From the NCBI GenBank assembly GCA_963696385.1, contig CAVOKF010000005.1, forward strand, positions 1,216,001 through 1,280,000: a stretch of 64,000 nt of DNA, written 5' to 3'. Below, piece after piece: positions 21,599-29,529 of this stretch. Origin of the DNA: an uncultured delta proteobacterium (GTDB lineage: Bacteria; Myxococcota_A; Polyangia; Polyangiales; Polyangiaceae). The notes beneath the pieces are model-generated. The model ran no database searches. It saw only the letters and a list, made by a program, of their open reading frames with translations, and had not been told where the DNA came from. Position 1 is the first letter of the stretch. Each line of letters opens with the position of its first letter. A program made the translations under genes and the position numbers.

Positions 21599-22030
21599 AT
21601 GACGGAAATGCATGGTGCCACGAACGAAGACGTGATCCCAGAGCTCTCGTCCGCCTGCGCGCATGAGCGAGGGACGCATCGTTCGGTTCGCGCTATGTTT
21701 TTGTCCGTGCGGCGGCCCGGGCGTTTCCAAGTCTTGCGCCCCGGGTTGGCCCCGATCGGCCTGAGCGCATCGCGCGCGCGGATCGGAGGCGAGGAGCTGG
21801 CGGTCTTCAGCTTTCCGGTTCCACCGCCCGCTTTGCCCGAGACATTGAGTGCGGCGGAACGCGAGGTCGCTGTGGCGTTGCTCGAAGGCTTGTCGAACTC
21901 GGAGATCGCGGTCGCCCGACGCACATCGGCGCGAACGGTCGCCAACCAGGTCGGGTCACTGTTTCGAAAGCTGGGCGTCCGTTCCCGTGCCGAAGCGGTG
22001 GCCGCACTCGGTCGCCTTCGGCGCGTTTGA
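21599..22030 (+). CDS. LuxR-type HTH transcriptional regulator (HTH only)
   Basis: LSAAEREVAVALLEGLSNSEIAVARRTSARTVANQVGSLFRKLGVRSR. Start uncertain. Confidence 0.85.
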   Translation: MTEMHGATNEDVIPELSSACAHERGTHRSVRAMFLSVRRPGRFQVLRPGLAPIGLSASRARIGGEELAVFSFPVPPPALPETLSAAEREVAVALLEGLSNSEIAVARRTSARTVANQVGSLFRKLGVRSRAEAVAALGRLRRV

Positions 22031-22212
22031 CGCCGCTCCCCTCGGCGCGGATCGTCGGCTAGATCCATGCAGAGTGCATCACGGCTCGTGATCTGCAGAG
22101 GCCTTCGCGCGCCGTCACGGGCTGCCGTTGCGATCTCCGCTTGCGATTGGGCGACAGCCGCTCAGCCCTCGAGCCCATCGATGGAACTGCTGGATTTCTC
22201 GATCCAAATCGA

Positions 22213-22241
22213 AGCTCCGGCTGCTGGACTCGAACCAGCGA
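22213..22241 (+). repeat. att core copy (displaced tRNA-Asn 3' end)
   Basis: agctccggctgctggactcgaaccagcga, identical to 29455-29483. Confidence 0.96.
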
Positions 22242-22506
22242 GCAAAGCACGCCGGAACATCTGGAAAACAAGCCGAATGGTGCGGACGTCGGCCGTGCTA
22301 ATTCGTCACCCCTCGCGACCGTTCGCGACCGTTCGATACCGCCCGATACGTCGCCAACGACGGATGCCGATATCGAACGCGCCATCGTAAAAGCCGTCTC
22401 CGCGGGCGCATTCGACGTCGCGCGGGTGCTTGCCGCGCAGCTTGAAAATAGGCTCCTGACGAGGATGCCGGCGAACGTGGTACCGATTCGACGCGAGCGT
22501 GTCTGA
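22242..22506 (+). CDS. Detached C-terminal segment (88 aa) of the integrase, rejoined on excision
   Basis: The att core reads SSGCWTRTS in the same frame as in the integrase and continues open to ...QLENRLLTRMPANVVPIRRERV*. Confidence 0.75.
22313..22352 (+). repeat. Four degenerate 10-bp tandem repeats (candidate Int arm or Xis sites)
   Basis: TCGCGACCGT TCGCGACCGT TCGATACCGC CCGATACGTC, about 70 bp from the att core. Confidence 0.5.
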
Positions 22507-22514
22507 CGTAATTC

Positions 22515-22565
22515 GTAGTGTTACTTTGTAACATTACTTGACGTCTCCACTTACGTGGATACAGT
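22515..22565 (+). promoter_or_regulatory. Operator-like inverted repeat plus sigma70-like promoter of the RHH gene
   Basis: GTAGTGTTAC-ttt-GTAACATTAC (22515-22537) directly before TTGACG-16nt-TACAGT; ATG 7 nt downstream. Confidence 0.55.
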
Positions 22566-22572
22566 GCTTCAA

Positions 22573-22752
22573 ATGAAGCGCGATCGATGGCTTCGAATCC
22601 GGGCGACTTCCGAAGACCTGGAGATCCTCAAACGCGGCGCGCAGCTACGCGGTCGCAGGGTCTCCGAGCATGTCCGCGAGCTGCTTCGCAAGGATGAGCG
22701 CGAGGCTCGCGCTGAATTGACACTGAGCCTGTCAGCATCCCAAACCCTATAA
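22573..22752 (+). CDS. Ribbon-helix-helix (MobC/DUF1778-like) DNA-binding protein
   Basis: KRDRWLRIRATSEDLEILKRGAQLRGRRVSEHVRELL beta-alpha-alpha pattern. Confidence 0.7.
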   Translation: MKRDRWLRIRATSEDLEILKRGAQLRGRRVSEHVRELLRKDEREARAELTLSLSASQTL

Positions 22753-22811
22753 AAGCAAACGCGCGCCAACCTTGCCGGGGGACGCGCGCGATTTGCCACG
22801 GAGAACGCAGA

Positions 22812-23147
22812 TTGAAAAATGCCACCGATTCGTCGTCGCGCAAGACGGCCGACGTTTACCTCACGAAGTCCGAACTCGAATACCTTGCATCGCTGCCAGA
22901 AGCGGAGGGCCTCCAGCTTGCGGAAGAGCGGATCGTCGCTCGGCAAGAGCTCGAACGTCTCGCACGAGATCGCGCGGAGCTTGCGAATGAGCGCGCAGGG
23001 CTGGCCGAACAGGCCACGCAAAAGGCCGCCAGGCTGCGGCACCGCGCAGATCATCCGGAGCGATACAACATGGCTTTCGTCGTTGATCGCCCGCCGAGCT
23101 TCGCGAGGAAGCCGCGTTGCACGATCGGCTCGCTCGCGAGCTCATGA
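22812..23147 (+). CDS. Hypothetical coiled-coil protein, possibly a frameshifted fusion with the next ORF
   Basis: Helical heptads ELERLARDRAELANERAGLAEQA. An alternative frame near 23092 reads AELREEAALHDRLAREL into the next ORF. Confidence 0.5.
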   Translation: MKNATDSSSRKTADVYLTKSELEYLASLPEAEGLQLAEERIVARQELERLARDRAELANERAGLAEQATQKAARLRHRADHPERYNMAFVVDRPPSFARKPRCTIGSLASS

Positions 23148-23581
23148 CGTTGACCACCGCATCGCCAGCGCATCGTGCGATGCCAGCTCCGCGCCCGCTC
23201 ATTCACGCCCGCCCGCGCGGTCATTCGCCTCGCCCGCAGAAGTCCGCGAGAGTTTCGAGCGGAGGTGGATGCGACGATCCATCGCCCGCGGAGCCTCCAA
23301 AACCTCGCCCCGGCCAGCCGGTAGGGGCACCGCTACTCGTTTCCGATCGAAGCGCATTCGCCCTCATCGGATTGAATCCGCGCCCGTTCCGGACCTTTGT
23401 CCGTGAGCGCGGACTCCAGACCTCGAAAGTCGGACGACGCACCGTCGTTCGCGCCGATGTCCTGCTCGAGGCCCTCGGGCTCGCCGACGTGCCTGCGACG
23501 GAGACGGCGAAGCCTGCCGTTGACTGGCGCGCTCGCGCGACACTTCGCCTTGTTGCTGGCGGGAATCGAGGCGGCCAATGA
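23144..23581 (+). CDS. Excisionase/AlpA-like winged-HTH protein
   Basis: C-terminal SAFALIGLNPRPFRTFVRERGLQTSKVGRRTVVRADVLLEAL matches the Xis-type HTH plus wing pattern. Confidence 0.6.
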   Translation: MTLTTASPAHRAMPAPRPLIHARPRGHSPRPQKSARVSSGGGCDDPSPAEPPKPRPGQPVGAPLLVSDRSAFALIGLNPRPFRTFVRERGLQTSKVGRRTVVRADVLLEALGLADVPATETAKPAVDWRARATLRLVAGGNRGGQ

Positions 23582-23847
23582 GCCCCGCCGACGTTTCCTC
23601 GTTCGACGCAATCCAACGGCTCTGCCAGGCGTTGGAGATCAAGCCGACAGTTTGGATCGGCTTCAATTCACAAACCGCTACGTGGTTCGCAGCGTGCCAT
23701 TCGCTGCCTATGGCCGAACAGCACAATGCACCGGAATTGAACGCGGCACTCGCGAATCTCGTCGCCGAGCTTCGGTGCCTGGCGATGGCCAAGCAGGAGA
23801 AGCTCGCTGCCGTCGCTGAACTGATTGCCGGCCCGGTGTCATCGTGA
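23578..23847 (+). CDS. Hypothetical protein
   Basis: 89-aa ORF with ATGA and GTGA overlaps to both neighbours. Confidence 0.55.
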   Translation: MSPADVSSFDAIQRLCQALEIKPTVWIGFNSQTATWFAACHSLPMAEQHNAPELNAALANLVAELRCLAMAKQEKLAAVAELIAGPVSS

Positions 23848-24734
23848 GCGCCGCCCCCGATTCGGCGCTTCAATACGTCACACGCGGGTGGTCGGTCTTC
23901 CCGCTCAGACCGAAGTCAAAAGTCCCGGCAACGGAACACGGTTTCAAGGATGCGACCCGAGACGCGTGTCAAGTCTACAAGTTGTTCGGCAGCGAACGCG
24001 ACTACAACCTCGGAATCGCGACCGGAGCTCGTTCGGGATTCTTCGCCGTGGACATCGACCCCCGTCACGGCGGAGACGAAACCCTCGGAGCTCTCGAGCG
24101 ACAATTCGGCCGACTGCCGGAGACGATCCGTGCTCTCACCGGAGGCTCGGACCAGGGCCAGCACATTCTATTTCGCCAGCCGGAGGGCGTGCGGCTCGCC
24201 GGTTCGCTCGGCGACGGAATCGAAGTAAAAGCCGACGGCGGCTATATCGTAGCGGCGCCGAGCATTCACCCTGAGTCTGGGCGCCCGTACCGCTGGGACC
24301 TTGGCGCATGCCCGGATGAAACGGCACTTGCGGACGCGCCTGCGTGGCTTCTTGAGGCACTTACCGCGGACACTCGGCCCCCGATCAAACCGCTCGACGG
24401 CGCCGATGCCGCCGACAGTGTGATCGGTCATGCGTTCGAGCTCGCTGAGATGCTCGGCGACATGTTGCCCGGGGGCAAGCGCATGGTGCGTTGTCCGTGG
24501 GCGAACGAGCACTCTGACGATCGCGGCTTCGGCAAGGATTCGAGCACCGTCATCTTGCCGCCGACACGGTGTCCACGCGATGGCCATGTCCCCGTCCGCA
24601 TTGCCACCACCGACCATTCCAGCCCAACGCCCCGGAATACGGAAGGCCAATCCGTCAAGAACCGTGCCAACGCGGCAATGAATCAGCAACCGGGCGCATC
24701 CACGTGCCAGCGCATACGCCCGCCGGGCTCCTAA
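23844..24734 (+). CDS. Bifunctional DNA primase/polymerase (prim-pol), no helicase domain, probably truncated
   Basis: GWSVFPL...KVP...HGFKDAT, NLGIATG, AVDIDPRHGG, GQHILF, GGYIVAAPSIHPESGRPYRW. Sequence after STVILPPT looks non-conserved. Confidence 0.9.
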   Translation: MSAAPDSALQYVTRGWSVFPLRPKSKVPATEHGFKDATRDACQVYKLFGSERDYNLGIATGARSGFFAVDIDPRHGGDETLGALERQFGRLPETIRALTGGSDQGQHILFRQPEGVRLAGSLGDGIEVKADGGYIVAAPSIHPESGRPYRWDLGACPDETALADAPAWLLEALTADTRPPIKPLDGADAADSVIGHAFELAEMLGDMLPGGKRMVRCPWANEHSDDRGFGKDSSTVILPPTRCPRDGHVPVRIATTDHSSPTPRNTEGQSVKNRANAAMNQQPGASTCQRIRPPGS

Positions 24735-25219
24735 TGGGCTCGCCACGGGCTTTTCGCTTGACCCCGTTCTTCGGTGCTCCGTACGCTCGGACAACGGGGG
24801 GTCAAGGGGGCGGTGCGCGTCAAGGGGCTAATCCGGAGCCGGGTGATGCCATCAGCGAGGTGGCGGGCAGTCTGCCTCGGTGCCACGGGGCTCGGCTGTA
24901 CCGGGCGCCCGGCTACGCGGCAGCGGCGACCGTCACGAGCATTCGGCTCACTTGCTGCGCCGCGAATACCGAGCCAGTGCGGCTGAAGCGTCCCTCGGCG
25001 GCTTGGCCACCTTCGACGGACGGCGGGCGTGGCGATCCACTCGACCGAGCTCCGCAGGGTGGCGGCCGCTCTCACTGCTGAGGCAGACCGGCTCGACGCC
25101 GTGCCCGACCAGGCAGCCATCGTGAGGCGCCCGCACGGACCGTGACCCTATTCCGTGCGCGCAGATGGCCCGCCACGGGTCGCCAGCGTCGCGACGGCGC
25201 CGCGCCCGGTTCGACGTCG

Positions 25220-25870
25220 TCAGTGCCTTGGGGAGGACATGTCATCGATGGCGGCAGCAAACTGCCGCATCAGCATGTCGCGCAAGAAGTTGATAATCGC
25301 CGCGAAGTCGGGCTCGGCGATGTCATCTTCGGTGCTCTTCGAATCGACCTCGCGCTGCGATGCGTCGACAACACGGAGAGCATCGATGTAGGCGTCACGG
25401 TTGTCGTAGATGAGCGATGGCATCGAGGGCACGCCCGGGAGCATTCGCCCCTCCCTCATACAGACGATCAAATACGCGATGGCACGCGAAGTCCGGCCGT
25501 TGCCACCAGCGAACGGATGGATCCAGTTGAAGCGCCACAGGGCGTATCCAGCGCGTTCAAGAGCCGAACGACTTTTCCCGCGGTTGATCCAGTCGATAGC
25601 GTCGCGAACGTGAGCTTGGACCAGCGAGCAATGCGGAACCTTATGCTTGCTGTTCTGAATGAACACGTCTTTGGTAGCGTCGCGGTAGCGACCACCGCAC
25701 GGATAGATCCCGTCAACGGCGATGCTTTGGAGCTGGAGCACGTGCGACTCTCGTAGTTCCGTTACACCGTCTTCGACGAGTTGCGTGAGATAGTCGAGCT
25801 GCTCGACGCCGTTCCGCGTTTCCAGCTCCGCCTTCCTGGCTGGATCACAAATGAGAGCCCCCTCGGGCAC
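25220..25870 (-). CDS. Fic-domain toxin
   Basis: IHPFAGGNGRTSR Fic motif and GRYR flap region. Confidence 0.92.
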   Translation of the reverse strand: MPEGALICDPARKAELETRNGVEQLDYLTQLVEDGVTELRESHVLQLQSIAVDGIYPCGGRYRDATKDVFIQNSKHKVPHCSLVQAHVRDAIDWINRGKSRSALERAGYALWRFNWIHPFAGGNGRTSRAIAYLIVCMREGRMLPGVPSMPSLIYDNRDAYIDALRVVDASQREVDSKSTEDDIAEPDFAAIINFLRDMLMRQFAAAIDDMSSPRH

Positions 25871-25876
25871 GGCCGA

Positions 25877-26059
25877 CTATTCCCCGGCTACCTTCTGATC
25901 CACAGCACGCTCGGCCATCTCACGTGTAACGTCGTTGTTTTCGATTTTCGTGTTGCCGTACGCCCAATCGACGCGTTGGTCGCGCGTCGGCCTCGACGGA
26001 AGCTGTCCGGAGTTCTGGAGCGCCCTGACTTTTTCGAGCAATTCCTCGTAAGTGCTCAT
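25877..26059 (-). CDS. Putative Fic antitoxin (VbhA/FicA-like)
   Basis: 60-aa ORF ending 6 nt upstream of fic, GGAG RBS, and WAYGNTKIEN resembling the inhibitory (S/T)xxxE(G/N) helix. Confidence 0.7.
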   Translation of the reverse strand: MSTYEELLEKVRALQNSGQLPSRPTRDQRVDWAYGNTKIENNDVTREMAERAVDQKVAGE

Positions 26060-26112
26060 GTTTTCGCTCCTCTTCAGGTGTATATCGTTGTGACCGTGAC
26101 TAATGTGCAGCT

Positions 26113-26144
26113 ATTGTATACGGGTTGGCAAGTACCAACCCGTA
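26113..26144 (-). promoter_or_regulatory. TA operon promoter region with perfect 10-bp inverted repeat
   Basis: TACGGGTTGG-caagta-CCAACCCGTA (26119-26144) abutting a minus-strand TACAAT -10 box (26118-26113). Confidence 0.55.
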
Positions 26145-26211
26145 AGACAAGGCTCTTTTAAGGAGGCAGGGAAAGGGCTCAGCGACACGGCCGGGCTTCG
26201 CCTGAGGCCGC

Positions 26212-26919
26212 CTACGCGGCCGCCGCTTCGCTCACGATCATCCTTGCGACCTGCTGCGCCGCAAACGGCCGGCCCGTGCGGCTCGTGTGTCCTTCGGCGG
26301 CAAGGGCGGAGGCCACTGCGCGGAGGCTTCGCCCCTCGGCTGAGAGCTCGCGGGCGCGAGCGATGACGGCTTGCTCGGATTCGAGCGCGACGAGACGCCC
26401 GTCGACGGCAGCGAAGCCGTAGGGCGCATCGCCTCCGGTCTTCTCGCCACGGGCTCGCTTGGCGCCGAGCGCTGCCTTCGTCCTGGCACGGATGAGAGCG
26501 CGCTCGTAGGCCGCTGCGCCGTCAATGACCGTACGCATGAAGGCGTCCGCGGGAGTCGACCCATTCCCTTCTCCCGCCGCGCTCACGACGACCGCGCCAG
26601 CGCTCGCCGCAGCTCGCTCGACGCCGGCCGTGAGCACGACGTCGCGGGCGATGCGATCTCGCTTCGCGACCACGAGCACGCCCGCACCGTGCTCGCGCAA
26701 GCTCGCCAGGGCGGCCAAGAGTGCGGGCCGTTCGTCGATGGCGTCGACGCTGCAGACACCCTGGTCCACGTGGAACGCGGCGACCGTGATGCCCTCGCGT
26801 GCGGCCCACGCTTCGATGCTGGCGCGCTGAGCTTCGGGGCTGAGCCGCTGGTCTTCCTTTGACACGCGAATGTAGGCGACAGCAACGAGGGGCGAACCGA
26901 CTTTGACGCGCTTGCTCAT
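26212..26919 (-). CDS. Serine recombinase (resolvase domain plus short recombinase/HTH tail)
   Basis: AYIRVSKEDQ catalytic Ser motif, RPALLAAL, VAKRDRIARD, YERALIRART, GGDAPYGF. Confidence 0.92.
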   Translation of the reverse strand: MSKRVKVGSPLVAVAYIRVSKEDQRLSPEAQRASIEAWAAREGITVAAFHVDQGVCSVDAIDERPALLAALASLREHGAGVLVVAKRDRIARDVVLTAGVERAAASAGAVVVSAAGEGNGSTPADAFMRTVIDGAAAYERALIRARTKAALGAKRARGEKTGGDAPYGFAAVDGRLVALESEQAVIARARELSAEGRSLRAVASALAAEGHTSRTGRPFAAQQVARMIVSEAAAA

Positions 26920-27033
26920 GCCTCTATCTGTAACACTTCGTTCGATGCGTGACAAGAGTGCACGCATCACAACGTAGATAGACACGGTGTGTTGATGCTT
27001 GCGCGGACGCTGTTTTACTGTACACTTGTGCAC

Positions 27034-27234
27034 ATGAGCAAGCCGAATACCGAATGGCCCGTCGTCGTGCGACTGTCGTCCGAAGATCAGCGGGCGCGCC
27101 TCGCGCGTCTCGAAACGGCCATGTCCGCGAAGCTCGGCGCGAACGTTCCGCGCACGACGATCCTCGAAGCGGTGCTCGCGCGCGGGCTCGACGCCTTGGA
27201 ACCGGAGTACGGGATCAAAGTTGCGAAGCGATGA
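27034..27234 (+). CDS. Small RHH-like DNA-binding protein
   Basis: PVVVRLSSEDQRARLARL...PRTTILEAVLARGLDALE; divergent from the serine recombinase. Confidence 0.6.
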   Translation: MSKPNTEWPVVVRLSSEDQRARLARLETAMSAKLGANVPRTTILEAVLARGLDALEPEYGIKVAKR

Positions 27235-27597
27235 ACGAGATCGTAGCCGTCGTCCGTGAACTCGGCCCCGACGAGCGTCGGGTGCTACTCGTGCTCGCGC
27301 GACGTCTGCTCGCGGGACAGTGCGCATACGGACGCCTCGACGTGGCCAGGGACGGAAGGGACTGGCGACGCGAAAGGGCCGACGAGCTCGCGGACGCGCT
27401 CGTCTACGGGGGCCATCGCCGAAGTGGCCGCGACGCTGCCGGCAGTCTCGACCCCGGCCGCCCCATCCGACGACGACGAGCCGTCGCGTGGTGACGTCGT
27501 CATCGTCGAAAACGCACACGATGACACCCCTTGCCTTGAATCCGAAAGGCTGGCCCACTTGGGTGCGGACAGAGTCGCGTCGGAAGGGGAGGGTTGA
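27231..27597 (+). CDS. Hypothetical protein with MazG-like acidic helix; probable frameshift at the G5 run near 27410
   Basis: AGQCAYGRLD...RDWRRERADELADALVY. Removing one G continues as GAIAEVAATL to the stop at 27597; uncorrected stop is at 27494. Confidence 0.5.
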
Positions 27598-27600
27598 CCG

Positions 27601-28230
27601 ATGGTGCGGTCTGGGGCGGCGACACTTTGGGGCGCCATGATGGTCTCGGGCTGCGGATCGTCGTCGCCGAGCATTTACAATTCATGGATCTACGTCAACG
27701 GTGGCGGGACCGCTGGGTTTGCTCTCGATTTCAAACAGAACGGCACATACGTTTCTCAGACGTTGGAACTCACGTCCTCGACGTCAGCAGACGTGCAACT
27801 AGAAACCGGCACGTTCGCGATTAGCGGTTCGACGATCACCTTTACGCCTCAGGACTGGTCATGCGCAGATTTGAACGATCCGCCATATTCGGCGACATAC
27901 ACGCTGACCGACAGCAGCTTGGAAGTTGCGGGGCCTACTGGGCTGACGGTGCTTCATGTCGACTCGAGCGCCGGCACAAACAACTTCACCGAGGTCATCG
28001 GCTGTTTCACTGCCGGAGTCTTCACGGAGTCGACGCTCGGCTGCGGCGGTGCAACTTGCTCCGCGGCTACAGGGTGCTGCGCAGGCTTCTCGTGCGTAGC
28101 GACCACTGCGGGTAGCCCCGCGGGGACATGCGCCGCAAACTGCACGACGAACTCTCAGTGCGCGTCGGGGTGCTGCGCGCCGCTATCTGACAATGCGGGC
28201 GCTTGCCAGGCGTTGACAGCCTGCAAATAG
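27601..28230 (+). CDS. Cargo lipoprotein, beta-rich domain plus Cys-rich C-terminus
   Basis: VSGC lipobox, ETGTFAISGSTITFTP beta pattern, C-terminal CC-containing disulfide-rich region; visibly less GC-rich than host genes. Confidence 0.75.
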   Translation: MVRSGAATLWGAMMVSGCGSSSPSIYNSWIYVNGGGTAGFALDFKQNGTYVSQTLELTSSTSADVQLETGTFAISGSTITFTPQDWSCADLNDPPYSATYTLTDSSLEVAGPTGLTVLHVDSSAGTNNFTEVIGCFTAGVFTESTLGCGGATCSAATGCCAGFSCVATTAGSPAGTCAANCTTNSQCASGCCAPLSDNAGACQALTACK

Positions 28231-28248
28231 AACGAAGGGTCGAAGACT

Positions 28249-29523
28249 ATGAGCCGACCGAGCACCGGGACCGTAGCGTGGCGCCGTGACGTCGATACGG
28301 GCGACTTTTGCTGGCATGCGCGCTACACGCGCGGCGACAAGACGCGAACGAACTGGATCGCTCTCGACCCGAGCATCGGCGAGGGCGACGTCGCGAGAGC
28401 GAAGGCGTCCGCGGCGAGCCTGGTCGGCACGGCCAAGTCGACCAGGAAGGACGGCAAGGGCGAGACGGTTGCCGACTACAGCGTGCGATGGCTCGCGGAT
28501 CGCGTCGGCCGGGTCGCGTCCGTGGCTGATGACCGCGCCCGCTTTCGGCTGCACATTCTGCCGATTCTTGGCGCGCTCGAAGCGCGATCGTTCACGCGCG
28601 ATGACGTCGAGCGTCTGCGCGACGACCTCGACCGGAAGATCGCCCGGGGGGACTTCTCGTGGAAGTCCGCCGCGTGCGTCTGGACGAACGTGTCCAGCAT
28701 GTGCGCCGACATGGTGAACGCCAAGAAGCGCGAGCTTCGGACTCGCGACGACAACCCGGCAAAGGACGTGAAACCGCCGGATCGCGGCGCTCGCAAGGCG
28801 AAGCAGTTCCTTTACCCCGACGAGTTCCTAAAGTTCGTGTCGTGCCCCGCAGTGCCGCTGCGTTGGCGCCGAGCGGTGTCCCTGGCGATCTACACCGCCG
28901 CACGCGACGGCGAGCTTCGGGACTTTCGCTGGGACGCGGGCGACATCGACCTCGGCCACGCCGTGCTGAACATCACGAAGGCCTACAACGAGCGCACCCG
29001 CAAGGTCGAGAGCACGAAGACGGCCGAGACCAGGCGATTCACGATCGAACCGAACCTGACGCCGCTGCTGCGGGTGATGCACCGGGATGCGCGCGGAAAG
29101 GGGCTCGTGCTGACCTGGCACGACCGGCACATGACGCGGTCGCTTCGCAGGTGGCTCCGCAAGGCGGGCGTCACCCGGCCCGAGCTCCACACGGACACGC
29201 CGACCCGCAAGGCGCTCACGTGGCACGACTTGAGAGCGACGGGCCTGACGTGGATGGCCGTCCGTGGAGATGACCCGCTCAAGATTCAGCAGCGGGCCGG
29301 GCATTCCACGTTCGCCACGACGCAGATCTACATCCGCACCGCGGAGAGTGTGCGCGCAGGCTTTGGTACCCCGTTCCCCCCGCTGCCGAGTTTCGTCATC
29401 GAAGCGTCAGTGACGGAACCAGAATCACCGTCGAGCCAAAAACAAGGCGATTCGAGCTCCGGCTGCTGGACTCGAACCAGCGACCCGGCGGTTAACAGCC
29501 GCCTGCTCTACCAACTGAGCTAA
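28249..29523 (+). CDS. int: Tyrosine integrase (integrated form, 424 aa)
   Basis: Catalytic residues R (TAARDGEL), K (STKT), HxxR (HDLR), H (AGHS), Y (TQIY). The ORF runs through the att core and ends antisense inside the tRNA. Confidence 0.95.
   Translation: MSRPSTGTVAWRRDVDTGDFCWHARYTRGDKTRTNWIALDPSIGEGDVARAKASAASLVGTAKSTRKDGKGETVADYSVRWLADRVGRVASVADDRARFRLHILPILGALEARSFTRDDVERLRDDLDRKIARGDFSWKSAACVWTNVSSMCADMVNAKKRELRTRDDNPAKDVKPPDRGARKAKQFLYPDEFLKFVSCPAVPLRWRRAVSLAIYTAARDGELRDFRWDAGDIDLGHAVLNITKAYNERTRKVESTKTAETRRFTIEPNLTPLLRVMHRDARGKGLVLTWHDRHMTRSLRRWLRKAGVTRPELHTDTPTRKALTWHDLRATGLTWMAVRGDDPLKIQQRAGHSTFATTQIYIRTAESVRAGFGTPFPPLPSFVIEASVTEPESPSSQKQGDSSSGCWTRTSDPAVNSRLLYQLS
29455..29483 (+). 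repeat. att core copy within tRNA-Asn 3' end
   Basis: Identical to 22213-22241. Confidence 0.96.
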
Positions 29524-29529
29524 GCCGGA
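29457..29529 (-). tRNA. tRNA-Asn (GTT)
   Basis: TCCGGCT-TAGCTCAGTTGGTAGAGC-A-GGCGG-CTGTTAA-CCGCC-GGGTC-GCTGGTTCGAGTCCAGC-AGCCGGA-G cloverleaf, 73 nt, CCA not encoded. Confidence 0.97.

Follow-up and report, generated by a model that had tools for sequence, protein, structure and literature searches.

The stretch of DNA analysed here, referred to below as 'the window', comprises 64,000 nucleotides of contig CAVOKF010000005.1 from a soil myxobacterium of the family Polyangiaceae, and contains a 7.2-kb integrative element (22213-29483) which sits in the 3' end of a tRNA-Asn gene and whose tyrosine integrase gene (int) runs across one of the element's two attachment (att) cores (Table 1). The two cores constitute an exact 29-nt direct repeat (repeat family D4; 22213-22241 = 29455-29483) which flanks the element and corresponds to the 3' 28 nt of tRNA-Asn plus one base; such a repeat is far beyond chance expectation in 64 kb. 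The tRNA-Asn(GTT) gene in which the right core is embedded is the sole tRNA called by ARAGORN in the window. From left to right, the element holds (i) a frame of 88 codons, hereafter 'the tail', which continues from the left core, (ii) a small open reading frame (ORF) with resemblance to ribbon-helix-helix proteins, (iii) a primase/polymerase (Prim-Pol) gene, (iv) a gene of the Fic/DOC family, (v) a fragment of a serine recombinase gene, and (vi) int itself. Neither Pfam nor PHROG yielded a capsid or terminase match within these 7.2 kb, and the locus is thus, as an earlier note on this DNA had it, a small capsid-less element.

Table 1. Features of the tRNA-Asn element in window coordinates.
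Feature	Coordinates	Strand	Remarks and evidence
attL core	22213..22241	.	displaced copy of the tRNA-Asn 3' end, in which the tail frame reads SSGCWTRTS; exact repeat and translation
Detached C-terminal tail of the integrase, 88 codons and TGA (22504-22506)	22240..22506	+	translation, homologs, fused proteins, AlphaFold2
Conserved two-helix hairpin, tail residues 42-75	22363..22464	+	AlphaFold2; conserved columns of alignment A1
Promoter-like site (22538-22565), then small ribbon-helix-helix-like ORF, first gene past the tail stop	22538..22752	+	promoter scan; weak NikA-like Pfam match
Prim-Pol gene (primase/polymerase N-terminal domain), replication function	23844..24734	+	PF09250, E 3.3e-42; PHROG DNA primase, 2e-37
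Fic/DOC-family gene	25220..25870	-	Pfam Fic, E 3.3e-16
Serine recombinase fragment; Resolvase domain at ORF residues 226-372	26212..27558	-	PF00239, 2.9e-27; PF07508; PHROG 95
Tyrosine integrase, integrated form, 424 aa; final 13 codons are antisense tRNA-Asn	28249..29523	+	Pfam; PHROG; 62% identity to the body of P0005
attR core	29455..29483	.	within the integrase ORF (residues 403-411) and within the intact tRNA-Asn gene
tRNA-Asn(GTT), intact, integration target	29456..29529	-	ARAGORN

The product of int matches the Pfam family Phage_integrase (PF00589) over residues 187-365 (E 6.9e-13; 49.2 bits compared with a cut-off of 27.1) as well as the integrase family PHROG 1 (E 7.7e-37). Residues R219, K257, H326, R329, H352 and Y361, to which we assign the catalytic roles on the assumption of the tyrosine-recombinase consensus R-K-H-R-H-Y, fall into invariant or near-invariant columns, and all of them precede the start of the core at residue 403; the core is thus located C-terminal to Y361 within the ORF. 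There, the protein reads SSGCWTRTS (residues 403-411) and then terminates with DPAVNSRLLYQLS*, that is, with 13 codons which lie inside the tRNA gene. At the opposite end of the element, the frame 22141-22506 likewise reads SSGCWTRTS through the left core, and then remains open for 88 codons (22240-22503) before the TGA is reached. The earlier note had described this arrangement from the sequence: an int ORF (28249-29523) that crosses the core and ends in antisense tRNA-Asn, a point on which repeat, ARAGORN and translation agree; a left core at which the same frame is open for 88 codons, which is what translation yields; and an integrated form of 424 residues opposed to a circular form of 499. 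The arithmetic of the latter is correct (411 + 13 = 424 residues for the integrated form and 411 + 88 = 499 residues for the predicted circle form), and all conserved active-site positions lie before the core, hence in both forms.

An open frame of this length was rejected as evidence by itself, because 38% of all positions in the window, which has a G+C content of 65.7%, are followed by 88 or more open codons; for an 88-codon open frame, P is 0.11 from base composition alone, and the G+C content at third codon positions is unremarkable in the tail frame. Since the tail frame is not beyond chance, the argument depends on homology. When the 88 residues were used for a six-frame search, five further tail copies were identified in the window's own genome (E up to 0.11), along with matches in genomes of the same genus (up to 9e-20 in G025 and 1.4e-17 in G004). 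None of the conclusions drawn here depends on the unpublished genome G027. The alignment of 14 tails (A1) yields the consensus TDAELERAIVDAVxxGLGDVARTLAxQLExRRRARxPxNVV, which is preceded by a variable stretch rich in Ser, Thr and Pro, and the tails end with basic residues (RRERV, RRGR and similar) after the folded hairpin described below. In all tail copies inspected, the stop-to-stop frame extends upstream into a peptide of the type encoded by antisense tRNA 3' ends (e.g., GVTDGFRTR, VEAPGIE and GGRDSNS). For the window tail, no in-frame ATG, GTG or TTG is found between the core and the helical part, and the only earlier in-frame starts (TTG 22141 and TTG 22147) are located in chromosomal DNA left of the element. 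Pfam and PHROGs offer no family for the tail, comparison with a phage collection gave chance-level matches only (E at least 9), and in an atlas of proteins the tail resembles only unnamed clusters of hypothetical Myxococcota proteins of 62-98 residues. Likewise, in a narrow full-text search of the open-access literature, neither this tail domain nor Polyangiaceae elements of this kind were found to be described. Judged by the alignment of its copies, the tail is a conserved protein domain.

Proteins in which integrase body and tail are contiguous were retrieved with a profile of the 14 tails from a collection of 5.8 billion proteins, with the search being confined to longer proteins. Sixteen such proteins were obtained, nine of which exhibit PF00589, and seven of those nine are metagenomic proteins of 489-571 residues. 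For the contiguous protein P0005 (508 residues), residues 1-413 align with residues 1-410 of the window integrase at 62% identity, while residues 408-500 align with the left-end frame from GCWTRTS on at 45% identity (E 2e-17), so that both window pieces are collinear on P0005 and meet exactly at the core. When 1.84 billion representatives were searched with P0005 (HMMER), 6651 matches were obtained at E <= 0.001, the best 150 of which were examined: 17 of these cluster representatives align in one stretch to P0005 residue 500 or beyond, and in 18 of the same 150 the tail is found 1-19 residues from the C-terminus (local hidden Markov model (HMM), E <= 1e-3), with tRNA-like linker peptides. Body, core and tail are also joined in a single ORF at the metagenome locus L143. 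In the window's own genome, a frame of 425 codons (C3:84679-85956) comprises integrase body, a tRNA-Glu-like core (NVVTPTGIE) and tail, with its N-terminal part being devoid of an integrase match. When full-length P0039 (528 residues) is compared with phages, the match stops at residue 373.

Split genes related to int point in the same direction. Three clean split pairs are available, i.e., the window, L085 (= L186 = L188) and G006:C8, and the frame is kept across the core in all three while the cores differ. At L085, the integrase ends with ...SSGADGNR at the contig end, and a tail ORF located 9.5 kb upstream reads ...SGADGNR followed by the tail, with a shared repeat of at least 22 nt. At G006:C8, the integrase end ...SGGAGNRTR is accompanied by ...GGAGNRTR plus tail about 10.9 kb upstream. 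The tail is thus part of the integrase and not a separate gene. The earlier note had looked to full-length homologs covering the tail, and to in-frame conservation of the tail in related elements, and both are at hand with P0005 and the 17 and 18 of the best 150 representatives on the one side, and with the three clean pairs on the other.

Two further sets of loci were considered and set aside. Contigs C75 and C76 of G025 display SSQKQAQNGVTDGFRTR at both junction types, and with no integrase upstream of the C75 tail this ambiguous case was not counted as a pair. Moreover, two near-identical loci of the window's own genome (L011:1411-1749 and L012:1405-1743, on C2 and C6) each contain a short integrase gene that is unrelated and ends at a stop codon of its own; a tRNA-like core and a well-conserved tail come next. 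These tails might appear to be a counter-example (stop before the core, other frame), which we rejected since the upstream integrase is unrelated and the core has no further occurrence in the genome; we take them for orphan left ends.

Structural models were generated with AlphaFold2 for P0005, using 21 full-length sequences, and for the window tail, using alignment A1. The P0005 model has a mean predicted local distance difference test score (pLDDT) of 83.4, with most of the body above 90, residues 388-454 below 50, and two tail helices (residues 459-471 and 475-492) at 91-95. For the window tail, residues 1-40 are predicted to be disordered, followed by helices 42-54 and 58-75 at pLDDT 95-97. 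These models suggest that the att core resides within a disordered linker of about 80 residues, and that the tail forms an autonomous α-hairpin which is followed by a PxNVV motif and the basic end. A Foldseek comparison of the P0005 body, which is 62% identical to the window integrase, identified the Tn1549 and lambda integrases as sharing its fold (6en2_A, E 9.4e-10, and 1z1b_A, E 2.6e-9, respectively), the best fold matches covering 310-391 alignment columns of the 508-residue model. No solved chain matches the tail: a fold search of solved structures with the tail alone gave nothing at E <= 0.001, the best matches being designed helical hairpins (E 2.2).

Integrases related to the one in the window were collected at 79 genome loci, which stem from Sorangium cellulosum, from Polyangium species and from metagenome-assembled genomes of Polyangiaceae or Polyangiales. 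At 32 of these 79 loci, the integrase ORF extends into a tRNA gene of opposite orientation (Asp 9, Ala 7, Ser 5, Glu 5, Leu 4, Pro 1, Val 1), a tRNA lies just downstream without overlap at one, and no tRNA was called at the integrase 3' end at the remaining 46. The tail model is more restricted: of 301 genomes drawn from the whole phylum, 7 gave a match, and these belong without exception to the window's family (6 of its 23 other members, and 0 of 277 genomes elsewhere). Three integrase paralogs are encoded in the window's own genome, namely at C8:20496-21791 (L002), C3:43074-44324 (L008) and C6:136069-137787 (L003); they are 60%, 40% and 55% identical and read into tRNA-Asp, tRNA-Glu and tRNA-Met, respectively. 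For the tRNA ends of these three paralogs, a search of that genome gave no second exact copy of 16 nt or more.

The closest parallel in design is provided by myxophage Mx8. According to the passages of PMC6070905 that deal with this phage, attP is located within int and integration creates a new 3' end of the gene, which, as attributed there to Magrini et al., modifies rather than inactivates the enzyme; the attB1 site of Mx8 is placed in a tRNA-Asp gene in the corresponding lines of PMC13454183. The likeness to Mx8 drawn in the earlier note (attP inside int, tRNA-Asp target) is thus right as far as the design is concerned. Integration of Mx9 is said to follow a similar principle (PMC6070905). 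The Islander paper also mentions that some integrases (Mx8, SSV) extend across attP. Mx8, which makes IntP in the phage and IntX/IntR in the prophage, stems from the same host phylum, and its Int shares the layout of the window integrase, that is, a body, a tRNA-like peptide (STGLEPV) and a tail of about 110 residues. However, the N-terminal region of Mx8 Int alone aligns with the window family (34% identity over 169 residues, E 5e-14), and Mx8 is a 49.5-kb tailed phage targeting tRNA-Asp, whereas the window element comprises 7.2 kb without capsid genes and targets tRNA-Asn. On integration of Mx8, 112 residues are reportedly replaced by 13.

Two other systems bear comparison. In SSV1-type integrases, attP likewise lies inside int, and integration is described, in the portion of PMC7253208 concerned with it, as splitting the gene in two and thereby disrupting it. 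In contrast to this disruption of a catalytic gene, the window integrase retains all conserved active-site positions on the 424-residue ORF, the exchange being confined to a C-terminal appendage. Integration-dependent immunity in the mycobacteriophages BPs and Brujita relies on attP being located in the repressor gene, so that integration removes a degradation tag and changes the behaviour of the repressor. As in the window, attP lies in a coding gene and integration alters the C-terminus of the encoded protein. What is removed is, however, a tag from a repressor in these phages, and in the window a folded hairpin with basic end from the integrase itself, with no ssrA-like tag.

Taken together, it is quite probable that the integrase gene spans the element's own att site, and that integration exchanges the 88-codon tail for 13 tRNA-derived residues, which may act as a switch. 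The gene on the excised circle would then encode a protein of 499 residues, consisting of an arm-binding and catalytic body, a GFGxPFPPLP motif, the disordered linker harbouring the core, the two-helix hairpin and the basic end. Recombination at the core would detach the last 88 codons and place them at the opposite end of the element, leaving the resident gene to encode the enzyme of 424 residues. By analogy with Mx8, only the free element would make the tailed enzyme, and hairpin and basic end might aid protein-protein or protein-DNA contacts required for the synapsis of attP and attB. A control of directionality or stability by the tail was put forward as a possibility in the earlier note. 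Following the same analogy with Mx8, the resident enzyme without tail might be attenuated or altered in its site preference, such that integration would be self-limiting and excision would come to depend on other factors. A core that is placed in a disordered linker would be expected to tolerate nearly any tRNA sequence in any frame, which may explain why at least seven tRNA isotypes are encountered among the relatives.

Several observations weigh against this explanation. The attP junction (29483 joined to 22242) was not found in contigs of four metagenome runs (X1, X2, X6 and X7), which is a weak negative since contig sets lose rare forms, and the one X7 contig that diverges from the window past 29485 is not interpretable; judged from sequence, the full-length tailed form is known from homologs, and not for the window element. 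A tail is present within the 10-kb flanks at just 2 of the 79 genome loci and at 7-8 of 80 metagenome loci, and a broader tail HMM detected no additional partner tails at the 79 genome loci, which implies that the tail-bearing branch is narrower than the integrase family or that the elements exceed the flanks. The tail model has no match in three complete Sorangium genomes. The window-family tail shows no detectable homology to the Mx8 tail (hhalign probability 0.05%), and the function is thus not transferable by homology. Then there are tails which do not continue the frame of the integrase next to them. In four cases, namely L136, L164, L182 and L188 (its second tail), an integrase has a tail immediately behind it that is out of frame, and at L146 (5105-6901) a TAA precedes the tRNA-Asp-like core by five codons and is itself directly followed by ATG ATG, with integrase and tail being in the same frame; at L146, the tail may be made separately or the gene may be broken. 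These cases would fit a tail that is an independent small gene, encoding a regulator or accessory DNA-binding protein whose continuity of frame with int is incidental, as would the atlas clusters of 62-98-residue Myxococcota proteins and the fact that a 121-residue ORF can be called from TTG 22141. We nevertheless consider this very unlikely: the only in-frame starts ahead of the helices in the window lie outside the element in the chromosome, 18 of the 150 integrase representatives carry the tail fused at their extreme C-terminus, the frame is kept in all three clean split pairs, and short atlas proteins are what gene callers would deliver for detached tails. At the loci with out-of-frame tails, different lineages use two frames for one and the same tRNA or transfer-messenger RNA-like 3' end (GGAGNR versus VEAPGIE, and SGADGNR versus VELTGIE), and L188 also possesses a cognate in-frame tail 9.5 kb upstream; we infer that the four out-of-frame cases are tandem arrays of unlike elements at one tRNA target.

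The exchange might also act with the opposite sign, if the tail were to inhibit or destabilise the integrase of the free form and the tail-less resident enzyme were the more active one. A long disordered linker would indeed allow the hairpin to fold back onto the body, but the tail has a basic end and no ssrA-like tag, and integration of Mx8, in the account given in PMC6070905, alters the enzyme in specificity or efficiency without activating it, so that this possibility appears improbable; the Mx8 tail is not detectably homologous, however. Comparably improbable is that the window copy represents a fixed, decaying remnant, with the split being a historical trace devoid of a present role. The element may be partly decayed, given the truncated serine recombinase and the Prim-Pol gene without helicase part, which speaks against a working switch; the inserted Fic cassette, the attP junction not seen in contigs and the presence of degraded relatives in the window's own genome (C3:84679-85956) are likewise in line with a remnant. 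On the other hand, int and tail ORFs are intact and in frame with identical 29-nt cores, among the metagenome runs listed, 20 from soil or peat, belonging to 13 studies, contain the element or parts of it, the metagenome contig L135 bears an integrase that is 100% identical, and a relative of about 90% identity has an empty-site-like contig at this tRNA.

The window element is therefore best regarded as a well-supported further case of the Mx8-type design with attP inside int, featuring an unnamed conserved tail module. The design, represented before by one or two myxophages, thereby comes to include a small element that is not a phage, and a set of Polyangiaceae integrases which share a conserved, foldable tail without Pfam name. 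For annotators, this provides an explanation for start-less 'hypothetical' ORFs that lie beside displaced tRNA fragments in these genomes, and a change of tRNA target by such integrases would find a simple explanation in the location of the core within a disordered linker. Myxobacterial genetics uses integration vectors based on Mx8, and integrases with other tRNA targets and a detachable module could become tools as well. A more far-reaching proposal, which we advance tentatively and with less confidence than the exchange itself, is that the hairpin-plus-basic tail is a portable C-terminal module of a Polyangiaceae integrase lineage, serving as a state sensor that drives integrative synapsis and is made by the excised element only. 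With the core placed in the linker, the lineage could move between many tRNA targets, and could even read one tRNA end in different frames, with no harm to the enzyme, and self-truncation on integration might be a general, evolvable principle of control. If this were true, integration-coupled self-truncation would not be a peculiarity of Mx8.

As for the other genes of the element, the stretch directly after the tail stop codon and before the ribbon-helix-helix-like ORF (22507-22554) is A+T-rich and contains the inverted repeat GTTAC-TTT-GTAAC, and by its sequence looks like a putative operator. A promoter scan identified one site here (22538-22565), with 0.2 expected, and the NikA-like Pfam match of the ORF (E 4.2e-4) is under the curated cut-off. 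In ORF 23117-23581, which has no Pfam or PHROGs match, the stretch …SKVGRRTVVRADVLLEALG… resembles by eye an excisionase or a helix-turn-helix of the AlpA type. No helicase part was found with Pfam for the Prim-Pol gene. In the serine recombinase fragment, the Recombinase domain (PF07508) is truncated at the ORF end, where profile positions 2-53 of 102 are matched. Copies of the element in X1 and X7 contigs omit 25179-26211 (1033 bp) and have 30 other letters instead. This segment holds the Fic gene and an ORF of 60 residues, and a direct repeat of 94 nt (24909-25002 and 26208-26301; 71% identical) is located near its borders; it looks like a cassette that was inserted beside the truncated serine recombinase gene.

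At the borders of the element, a simple terminator scan near the tRNA end gave no match. The X2 contig of the relative with about 90% identity joins 21692 via 78 other letters to 29455, resembling an empty site, and the relative thus lacks not only the element but also the 520 bp left of attL (21693-22212), a stretch which may be the remnant of an older insertion or an indel between strains. Finally, the peptide SSQKQ (29431-29454) that directly precedes the core is shared by integrases whose tRNA targets differ (window, P0005, L104, L111, L118 and L067), and is encoded by a run of A which corresponds, on the tRNA strand, to a run of T immediately after the tRNA 3' end.

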